64,000 nucleotides of DNA. Origin: Eledone cirrhosa. Lineage: Eukaryota. A model generated the notes under the pieces. It made no database searches. It worked only from the letters and a program-made list of their open reading frames with translations, and had not been told where the DNA came from. The position numbers and the translations under genes were made by a program. This document shows positions 9,789 through 13,339 of the stretch, piece by piece. The stretch is from positions 5,332,001 through 5,396,000 of the forward strand of contig OZ024756.1 in the NCBI GenBank assembly GCA_964016885.1. Direction: 5' to 3'. Numbering within the stretch: position 1 is the stretch's first letter; every line of letters starts with the position of its first letter.

Positions 9789-12154
9789 TGTGTTTATTTA
9801 TAAATATAATGGCAAGTAGCAATCAGAAGTGCTGGACAGCAGGTCTTTAGAGGAATAAAAAAAATAACCGTTATGCAAGAATTTCAGCCCTTAACTTCTT
9901 AATGTGGTCGGTCGGAGCCGGTCCGAGCCGGTCCGAGCCGGGCCGAGCCGGGACGCATATAATATATAGACACTAGTTTTCTTCAGGATAAATGACACTA
10001 GTTTTCTTCGTAAGGTATGATCATCTAGTTTAAAAAAAAAAAAAAAAAAAAATGTAATTAAAACTTGGTTCAATATCAATGGAAACCACGATTGGATTCT
10101 TTAAAGAATTGAACCATTGGTGTACAGCATGGTTTATTTCAACAACAATAATAATTTCTAAGCTAGGGATAAAATCAGAATTTTTTGAAGAGGGGAATGG
10201 TGTTTATAACGAACCTAGTACGTGTATTTTGTTTTATCGATCCCAGAGAGATGATACGCAAAGTTGGCTTAAGTCCTATTTGACCATACTGTGTAATGAT
10301 GCAGAATAAACACCACATACAATTTCTATCAATGTTTTACCTTAATGGTTTCTAATTTAGGCGCCAGGCCAACGTGATGAGGGAAGACGTAATCGATAAT
10401 ATCAACCCTAGTATTTGAATAGAACTTTATTATATCGACCACATAGAAAAATGGAAATCAGTGGGACTTGAACATAGAACCGGGAGAAATACCACGTCGT
10501 ATTTTCTCCATCACCCTTAATGATTTCTCATTTAGACTTTAGGCTAATCTATTGCGCTCAAAATTTAATGTAATACTAAAAAAACATAAACAGCAGTGTC
10601 ATCATATCAAAATATATTCAATTCTCTTTCATGTAAATATTTCATTCAATTCTAGGCATCAAAAAACTTAATATAATGAGAGAATCTTATATGAAAACTT
10701 TCCCGCCTTTTTTCTGAATGACTGTATAAGTCGAATGGTAGAACCCTGCAATATTCACGCTGAGAAATGGTAATTACATTTCCATCATCTCTTGCATGCA
10801 ATCATACACTACCATTTCTTTCATAATTCACCCTCTTCCAAATAAATATTTATCTGTGTTTCGTGTTAAAACATCTATTATGCAGCATATTTATACAGAG
10901 AGAGAGAGAGAAAGAGAGAGACATACAGCACACGCAAAATCCCCATACACACAAAAAAACGCATATATACACACACACATATATATATATATATATATAT
11001 ATATATATATATATATATATATATATATGTATATATATTTGATTATATGCATTTGCGTGCATTTATTTATTCATTTATTTATTCAATGTGAACGTCCGTA
11101 TAGAGCCAGTAAGCGATAACAGGGGAAGTATCGAGTACACTTTACAGTTGGTAATCATAGAGCTAGTGAGACACGTAATAAAAGAAATATTAAAGAAGGG
11201 AAACATAAAACATAATAAAATAAAATAAGATAAAATAAAATTTCAAATATTAAAGGACAATGTGGGAGGGGCGGGGCAGATCATGTAGAAGGAAAGAAAA
11301 AGAAAAGGAAAATACGAAACAAGGGAAACTGTAAAACTGCTAGAAGTTTCTCTTGTTGAATCTTTTCCTAGCTTCCATGTACTCAAAGATTTTGTTTATA
11401 TTTTCCAATATTAATAATTTTTTAAAGATTGGTTTCAACATATATTTCTACATTTTACATACTATGCATTTTGCTTAAACTTTAATCTGTTATTTTAATA
11501 AATATATATATATATATCGCAAGTGTATTTTGTTGATTTCGGTTTCACAGAAACCTATCGGAGATATTGCATAATATCGACGCGATGGTTCAGGTTTGTC
11601 AAATTATCCTGAGTTGGTTTTCTCGTTGCGTTGGTCCCTGCGGCCGGTTTACCGGTCGCAATCTTCAATTTCCAAAGGTCTCTAAACGTAATGTTATTAC
11701 TCTAAGGTAAAATACCTTATTGAGTACTTATCTGCACATTCCGATTGCATTCGTTAGCTTAACCGCAGCCAGAGCTTCGATTATGCTGTACTTGCATTTG
11801 TATATATATATATATATATGAATATATATATATATATATATATATATATATATATATATATATATATATATATATATATATACATATATATATATATATA
11901 TATATATATATATATATATATATATATATATATATATATATATATATATATATATATATATATATATATATACATTAACATATATGATAAACACGAAACG
12001 TGTTTGCATTGTAACAGACAAAGTTAGCTATTAATGAAATAAACTAATTAAAGTGAATACAATTTGTCTGTCTCGATATAAGTCAATAAAGACAAGCTTA
12101 TATTGGCAACGGCCATGATTCCTGGACAGATTTAAATTTCAAAATCCAGACCTG

Positions 12155-12290
12155 TTCCGTAGACGAATTTGAACCTCGAAACCTAAATCCGTTTCGCAAC
12201 GGTGGTATGTGAATTGAAAAATAAAGAGAATCGAAATGGAATTGAAATAAAAAGTGAAATATCAAAATCTTCTGTGCTTATCAACAGGAA
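12155..12290 (-). ncRNA. Hammerhead ribozyme, U3-A8 variant, family G
   Basis: Inverted copy of 12824-12959. Confidence 0.65.
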
Positions 12291-12823
12291 TCAAGTAAAC
12301 ATTTTGCAGGTCTGACTACACGTGTGTAGACAGGTCAAACTAGCCGTCCCGCATTCACAGTGCTAGAAATAACAGCCGTTTATGCGGGATTAAAGATCAG
12401 CTCTACAGTTAAGGAGCAATATACTATATTATATTTTGAGAATAAACTCTCAGTCGTTTACAATAATCAAGCTCCAAGAAAAGGGGCATTTCCGAGCAGT
12501 TAAATACATTAAAATATATGATAAACACGAAACGTGTTTGCATTGTAACAGACAAAGTTAGCTATTAATGAAATAAACTAATTAAAGTGAATACAATTTG
12601 TCTGTCTCGATATAAGTCAATAAAGACAAGCTTATATTGGCAACGGCCATGATTCCTGGACAGGAATAGTATATTGCTCCTTAACTGTAGAGCTGATCTT
12701 TAATCCCGCATAAACGGCTGTTATTTCTAGCACCGTGAATGCGGGACGGCTAGTTTGGCCTGTCTACACACGTGTAGTCAGACCTGCAACATTTTTGATG
12801 TGAGATGTACTAATTTTACTGGA

Positions 12824-12959
12824 TTCCTGTTGATAAGCACAGAAGATTTGTTAATTTCACTTTTTATTTCAATTCCATTTCGATTCTCTTTATTTTTCAA
12901 TTCACATACCACCGTTGCGAAACGGATTTAGGTTTCGAGGTTCAAATTCGTCTACGGAA
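12824..12959 (+). ncRNA. Hammerhead ribozyme, U3-A8 variant, family G
   Basis: ttcctg-TTGATAA-gca...(long loop)...tgc-GAAA-cggattt...aaattcg-TC|ta(c)ggaa; full stem III, GUC site. Confidence 0.68.
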
Positions 12960-13339
12960 CAGGTTTGGATTTTGAAATTTAAATCTGTCCAGGAATCATG
13001 GCCGTTGCCACTATAAGCTTGTCTTTATTGACTTATATCGAGACAGACAAATTGTATTCACTTTAATTAGTTTATTTCATTAATAGTTAACTTTGTCTGT
13101 TACAATGCAAACACGTTTCGTGTTTATCATATATTTTAATGTATTTAGCTGCTCGGAAATGCCCCTTTTCTTGGAGCTTGATTATTGTAAACGACTGAGA
13201 GTTTATTCTCAAAATATAATATAGTATATATATATATATATATATATATATATATATATATATAGAGAGAGAGAGAGAGAGAGAGCGAGAGAGAGAGAGA
13301 AATATTTATTAAAATAACAGATTAAAGTTTAAGCAAAGA

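Follow-up and report, generated by a model that had tools for sequence, protein, structure and literature searches.

A candidate non-LTR retrozyme in Eledone cirrhosa with a predicted long-helix hammerhead, probably copied from circular RNA by Penelope-type machinery

The window analysed here, a 64,000-nt stretch of the Eledone cirrhosa genome, contains a two-armed insertion at 11971–13229, set between (TA)n tracts. The inserted element carries a predicted self-cleaving type I hammerhead with a long helix III; this motif, overlooked in the first-pass annotation, is the feature that identifies the element. It is likely a variant of the non-LTR retrozymes, probably mobilised by a Penelope-like element (PLE), and the paired ends of its genomic copies leave us in little doubt that PLE machinery moved it. 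The evidence favours as template a monomer that was read repeatedly, most likely a ligated circle.

Positions within the 555-nt family unit are numbered from U1, the right outer end of the insertion (13229), which is equal to 12419. The parts of the locus are as follows.

11801 to 11970, no strand: left flank, (TA)n target microsatellite by sequence reading (most family copies end in (TA)n)
11971 to 12663, plus strand: left tail-less arm in cDNA sense, U87 to 555 and then U1 to about U245, 1.3 periods
12419 to 12504, plus strand: internal copy of the 86-nt tail, U1–U86, between both start sites
12664 to 12665, no strand: inner arm junction with 2 inserted bases, by sequence reading
12666 to 13229, minus strand: right tailed arm, U1 to 555 plus 9 nt, cDNA sense on the minus strand
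12704 to 12746, plus strand: conserved hairpin in which 3 of 49 predicted pairs differ on both sides among the sister families, as compensatory changes
13144 to 13229, plus strand: terminal 86-nt tail, at the right outer end only
13225 to 13263, no strand: right flank, (TA)n target whose first bases overlap the element end; a target-site duplication is not readable inside this repeat

The first-pass annotation had described a left arm of 1.3 units and an inverted right arm exceeding one unit, with different starting points, and the repeat coordinates bear this out: the right arm measures 1.02 units, and 12505–12663 repeats 11971–12129 with 99% identity and a period of 534 nt. That period, which had been taken for the monomer, holds for the left arm and differs from the family unit because of a 21-nt deletion near 12300, seen only at this locus (1 of 105 spanning segments). 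In its own orientation, the right arm begins at the equivalent of 12419, crosses the start point of the left arm and stops 9 nt beyond its own start. Identity between the arms is 93–99%, far above chance, and it is the plus strand of the right arm that reads as RNA (fold z of −5.5 on that strand). The element is non-coding, with no stop-to-stop frame of 75 amino acids or more inside it, and lacks the ORF with reverse transcriptase (RT) and GIY-YIG domains of an autonomous PLE. The GCTAGAAATA motif of the conserved hairpin (window 12720–12735) recurs in unrelated repeats of this genome (L095:9598–9615, window-end tandem repeat).

Other repeats surround the insertion. A broken non-LTR retrotransposon with a PHD finger and RT fragments, which we presume to be CRE-like, adjoins it at 13333–16500. 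Facing short ends of another (TA)n-associated element lie around it at 11470–11510 and 13300–13345, each matching 48–50 fetched loci. An abundant repeat of about 185 nt has some ten copies in the window, in both orientations (6138–6322, 9601–9788, 17130–17315, 24996–25179, 30474–30646, 33377–33560, 34555–35350 and 38327–38505).

The predicted hammerhead is complete once in each arm, and its parts are given below.

12117 to 12292, minus strand: complete type I hammerhead of the left arm, core at 12284–12278, predicted cut between 12125 and 12124
12651 to 12663, minus strand: fragment of a second hammerhead, stem I 3' strand and cut site; the left arm stops 5 nt beyond the site
12822 to 12997, plus strand: complete type I hammerhead of the right arm, a descriptor match
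12822 to 12829 with 12990 to 12997, plus strand: right-arm stem I, 8 bp
12830 to 12836, plus strand: right-arm core UUGAUAA, U3-A8
12837 to 12839 with 12916 to 12918, plus strand: right-arm stem II, 3 bp, with a 76-nt loop
12919 to 12922, plus strand: right-arm GAAA
12922 to 12988, plus strand: right-arm helix III, 27 bp
after C12989, plus strand: right-arm predicted cut, GUC site

A canonical core spotted by eye in the most distant sister family pointed to the motif in family U, which an initial regular expression had passed over by limiting the stem II spacer to 60 nt. A structure descriptor finds the motif in both arms and matched none of 300 shuffled units. Among descriptor matches, counted with overlapping loci included, the U3-A8 core is present in 131 of 134 from family U and 61 of 61 from family V, and a C3-G8 core in 36 of 36 from family W and 26 of 27 from family X. 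Covariation across 26 copies of the four families is consistent with this structure: 94.4% of cells pair, as opposed to 18–51% in slid controls, the cells being non-independent events because the aligned copies are related. Nine of the 31 hammerhead pairs changed on both sides, including five of the eight in stem I and the core pair 3-8 (U-A in 16 copies, C-G in 9, unpaired in 1). With its G-U-rich helix, the hammerhead is predicted to work on one strand only.

The helix III pattern has 2,703 matches genome-wide (reversed control, 0), and all 22 sampled loci are units of this four-family clade. An Rfam search of the unit returned no ribozyme, and no tertiary contact between loops I and II was identified in the hammerhead. 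Twister, HDV-like and hairpin ribozymes were dropped as candidates after comparison by eye with their motifs. We also identified a compact hammerhead-like motif at window position 44040 on the plus strand (CUGAUGA core, GUC site and 7-bp stem I) that is unrelated to the family.

Exact matches to a 15-mer from the unit number 318 in this 3.0-Gb genome (control, 0), and three contig sets from one sample agree with a high-copy DNA family. We mapped 106 distinct family U loci after removing overlapping fetches and two near-identical duplicates (L100 and L169): 67 are inverted, 35 single-armed and 4 complex. In 57 of the inverted loci one outer end lies at U1 and the other at U83–97; in the other 10 an end is eroded or could not be classed, and no locus has the same kind of end twice. 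The offset between the two fixed start sites is 86 nt in inverted copies, and a subset of loci chosen by pattern instead of best score gave one end of each kind in 31 of 37. Sister families V, W and X, with periods of about 534–561 nt, show the same end behaviour. Across the four families, 115 of the 118 inverted loci with both ends classed (from 142 inverted loci) have one tailed and one tail-less end, two have two tails and one has none.

This map contradicts the free circular permutation of starts proposed in the first-pass annotation. The supposed unit junction at 11971/12505 has no special status: it coincides with the second of the two start sites used throughout the family. Shared fixed termini had been named there as grounds for rejecting permutation, and the outer ends are indeed fixed; inner junctions differ in position among loci and are mostly short overlaps or inserts. 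Fixed outer ends do not exclude a circle, because PLE RT is reported to start inside the RNA at two fixed sites (PMC11167929).

More than one unit is present in 25 of 60 arms with a tail and in 18 of 63 without, the longest reaching about three units (L036). Among the first 100 matches listed, no locus exceeds three units and no long master array is present. Two or more hammerheads lie head-to-tail in 11 of the 106 loci; the locus described here has only one complete motif per arm. Among variable sites, U440 (window position about 12790), beside a quasi-palindrome, shows the same T/G difference within 11 locus comparisons, which marks it as a mutation hot spot that may be due to the RT. A signature of A-to-I editing is absent (40 T>C and 41 A>G). 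A U6-like promoter in the unit was dropped as a candidate, having only weak AT-rich matches. The genome itself has 32 U6 snRNA genes in a tandem array with a spacing of about 1.8 kb (G000:C19:31780605–31840331). In the U6 loci inspected, a TATA box is preceded by an octamer-like motif at a distance of about 45 nt.

The one-tailed, one-tail-less end map supports the PLE-type inversion that had been suggested for this locus. Inverted PLE insertions are described with a tail of 30–40 nt at one end only (PMC8557442, PMC3846280). This tail is reported as the stretch between two internal RT start sites, the enzyme cutting and extending both strands (PMC11167929). Endonuclease-bearing PLEs in these three reports also resemble the family in their partial tandems, inverted truncated copy, AT-rich or (TA)n targets, and tail bounded by two internal starts; family copies, too, lie in AT-rich or (TA)n targets. 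Unlike those PLEs, the element has no ORF, and its tail measures 86 nt versus the published 30–40 nt. Furthermore, one start site of each kind is used strictly here, whereas PLE strands in vitro are reported to have used both sites alike.

The genome holds candidate sources of such an enzyme. We identified more than 10,000 GIY-YIG candidates, together with long RT-GIY-YIG ORFs that, from our reading of their cysteine linker, look Neptune-type; L078 carries RT plus GIY-YIG. Five of the 13 GIY-YIG loci examined (L080, L084, L087, L089 and L097) have inverted arms within (TA)n, only one of which bears a tail, and tails of the PLEs in this genome, read by eye, are about 37–66 nt. No partner with related sequence or a shared pLTR was found in 40 GIY-YIG loci out of the more than 10,000 candidates, and the 22 sampled motif loci contain neither a PLE ORF nor shared pLTR sequence. 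One host PLE family (L081, L092 and L094) has a compact hammerhead-like motif with a CUGAAGA core downstream of its ORF, unlike the long-helix motif.

The nature of the template can be read from the uniformity of the units. Copies within a locus differ by 1.5–1.6%, whether in the same arm or across arms, and loci differ from each other by 5.2%. At shared polymorphic sites the differences are 0.38% within an arm, 0.40% across arms and 3.75% between loci in family U, and 0.68%, 0.35% and 5.7% in family V. Clustering of the 35 loci that have tandem overlap gives 34 groups at a distance of 0.4%, 27 at 1% and 10 at 2%. The low difference within loci at shared polymorphic sites, tenfold below that between loci, thus spans about 30 lineages. 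Lineage variants occur in every unit and in both arms; for example, a 26-nt deletion is present in both arms of L104. Such uniformity in many lineages requires a monomer bottleneck followed by re-expansion. Gene conversion after insertion is not its main cause, because, of 603 minority alleles present throughout a locus, just 25 are private to it.

Arms also read freely through the predicted cut site. It is crossed by 130 of 170 arms, by 25 of them twice, with up to three passes, and only 3 arms end there out of 161 arrivals. Since arms cross without an excess of ends, the template was continuous at this point. An enrichment of arm ends at the cut site, considered because of family V ends at 239–245, was rejected: the site is at 259, and p was at least 0.5 in all four families. 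A pile-up of family U ends after one full round was likewise dropped as not site-specific against the second-pass baseline (26% vs 22%); full-length queries bias first-pass end rates. A ligated circle fits both the uniform units and the free crossing of the cut site. From these sequence patterns we regard both arms as likely copied from one RNA or one source, and the template as probably a covalent circle. Some templates may have been heterogeneous: derived alleles within a locus recur elsewhere in 69 of 384 cases against a null of 48.8 ± 6.0, and L139, L141, L156 and the locus described here (12 differences in 423 nt) look mixed.

The same element and enzyme could instead have used a linear template, an uncleaved transcript slightly longer than one unit or a multimer, with the RT jumping between terminal repeats and the hammerhead only trimming; we judge this rather unlikely. 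The main substrate of an anole PLE is reported to be unprocessed RNA, and hammerhead mutants did not lower its insertion in vitro (PMC11167929). The lack of an end pile-up at the cut site fits uncleaved RNA as well as it fits a circle, and some loci are mildly heterogeneous. Seven of the 35 single-arm copies end at U101–107, which could mark a transcript start, although pairing of these AT-rich ends with the (TA)n flank would also explain them. Simple inheritance of linear multimers, however, cannot keep units uniform over some 30 lineages that lie several percent apart, and jumps between different RNAs should yield mixed loci, which are rare. What survives of the linear reading is a seamless jump within one molecule, which genome sequence cannot separate from a circle.

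An origin at the DNA level, through local tandem duplication, fold-back and gene conversion, or through insertion of either a DNA circle or a Helitron-like rolling-circle product, is largely refuted and in our view very improbable. Tandem and inverted copies can become homogenised by conversion, and the 25 locus-private alleles are common to all copies of their locus. The other 578 of the 603 locus-wide alleles occur at other loci too, the two start sites are fixed and used in complementary fashion as in the host PLEs, and the covarying hammerhead would work on one strand only. Helitron ends are a 5' TC and a 3' CTRR, and the ends of the element lack a 3' CTRR of this type. Scarcely credible is the earlier model taken literally, in which plus- and minus-strand cDNAs of a circle began at arbitrary points. 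It fits this locus insofar as the starting points of the arms differ and both arms are longer than one unit, but the end map of the 106 loci shows two fixed family-wide start sites, and both arms are complements of one RNA strand, the one with the hammerhead. We therefore infer two first-strand cDNAs, one per DNA end, in place of the two cDNA strands proposed. Of the circular or concatemeric RNA that had been suggested, what stands is a template longer than one unit and probably circular; its arbitrary starts do not.

Our preferred account, in which a PLE RT used a single RNA, most probably a circle of one unit, as its template at both ends of a (TA)n break, is reasonably probable as a whole. 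A source arm with two hammerheads would be transcribed and would cleave itself to a monomer, which a host ligase could close; ligation by a host enzyme in vitro is reported for other retrozymes (PMC7229834). The PLE protein would bind the tail region, and its GIY-YIG nuclease would cut both (TA)n strands. The opposite DNA ends would then prime inside the RNA, one at U1 and the other at U87, each cDNA extending for about 30 to 1,700 nt and round the circle if long enough. Joining of the cDNA ends through microhomology or a short insert would leave head-to-head arms with a tail at one end. The copy in the window has one complete hammerhead per arm, and would thus be a dead-end product and not a source. 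The 27-bp helix III should let a circle reopen itself, so the circular model needs some further block against this. As a tentative extension, one possible arrangement is a single PLE dimer on the 86-nt tail of one closed RNA, which would give each border to one DNA end and then roll both sides at once, with the long helix III, conserved in sequence, acting as a protein-bound lock that stops a hammerhead competent as a monomer from reopening the circle.

Non-LTR retrozymes have been proposed as PLE derivatives (10.64898/2026.07.22.740005; Li, Clavereau and Pollet), and a circular template was proposed in 2014 (PMC4209133) and 2020 (PMC7229834; Cervera and de la Peña). Metazoan non-LTR retrozymes, as portrayed in PMC7229834 and 10.64898/2026.07.22.740005, resemble the element in their non-coding unit, single type I hammerhead, tandem copies and accompanying PLEs, and in the proposal of a circular RNA template with PLE mobilisation. 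The unit is 555 nt here versus about 170–400 nt for tested invertebrate retrozyme circles (51–972 bp across the survey), and the predicted hammerhead has a 27-bp helix III, a 76-nt loop II and U3-A8 in contrast to their helix III of 1–2 bp. Dispersed two-armed insertions with up to about three units per arm and a one-sided tail have no description for metazoan non-LTR retrozymes in the excerpts of those reports.

Closer parallels exist for single traits. The Schistosoma Cercyon pLTRs (PMC4209133; Cervera and de la Peña 2014) have the U3-A8 core, and fungal and protist PLEs in the same study have a large helix III, active as a monomer. Here the two traits are combined in an animal non-autonomous element, whereas the metazoan PLE motifs covered by that study have a minimal or small palindromic helix III. 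The terms U3A8 and C3G8 gave no literature match and are absent from the portions seen of PMC3088659; the variant itself is described in PMC4209133. Non-autonomous Chlamys PLEs such as MRC1 (PMC8557442) share the pLTRs and multicopy head-to-tail insertions, but that clade is presented as lacking canonical hammerheads and as resembling an autonomous family at the 3' end, a partner not found here. Among the papers listed, none describes two-armed retrozyme insertions or cephalopod retrozymes in its title or the opening of its abstract, and supplements could bear on both. Non-LTR retrozymes are known; what is new is the family itself, its U3-A8 hammerhead with a long helix III, the change of core within a single clade, and the tally of paired ends over four families.

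The clade bears on how animal retrozymes integrate and on the origin of inverted, one-tailed Penelope insertions. It supplies evidence at the population level: one-of-each start use, uniform units in many lineages and read-through of the cut site. The 555-nt unit is also a substrate for a direct test of the circle route. Because the predicted hammerhead escapes both Rfam and short-helix descriptors despite its 2,703 copies, surveys of retrozymes may undercount them. If the arrangement of a dimer on a circle is true, the clade would provide a naturally occurring, minimal circular template for integration at two ends, and looser descriptors should bring to light a further set of animal retrozymes that escape those now in use.
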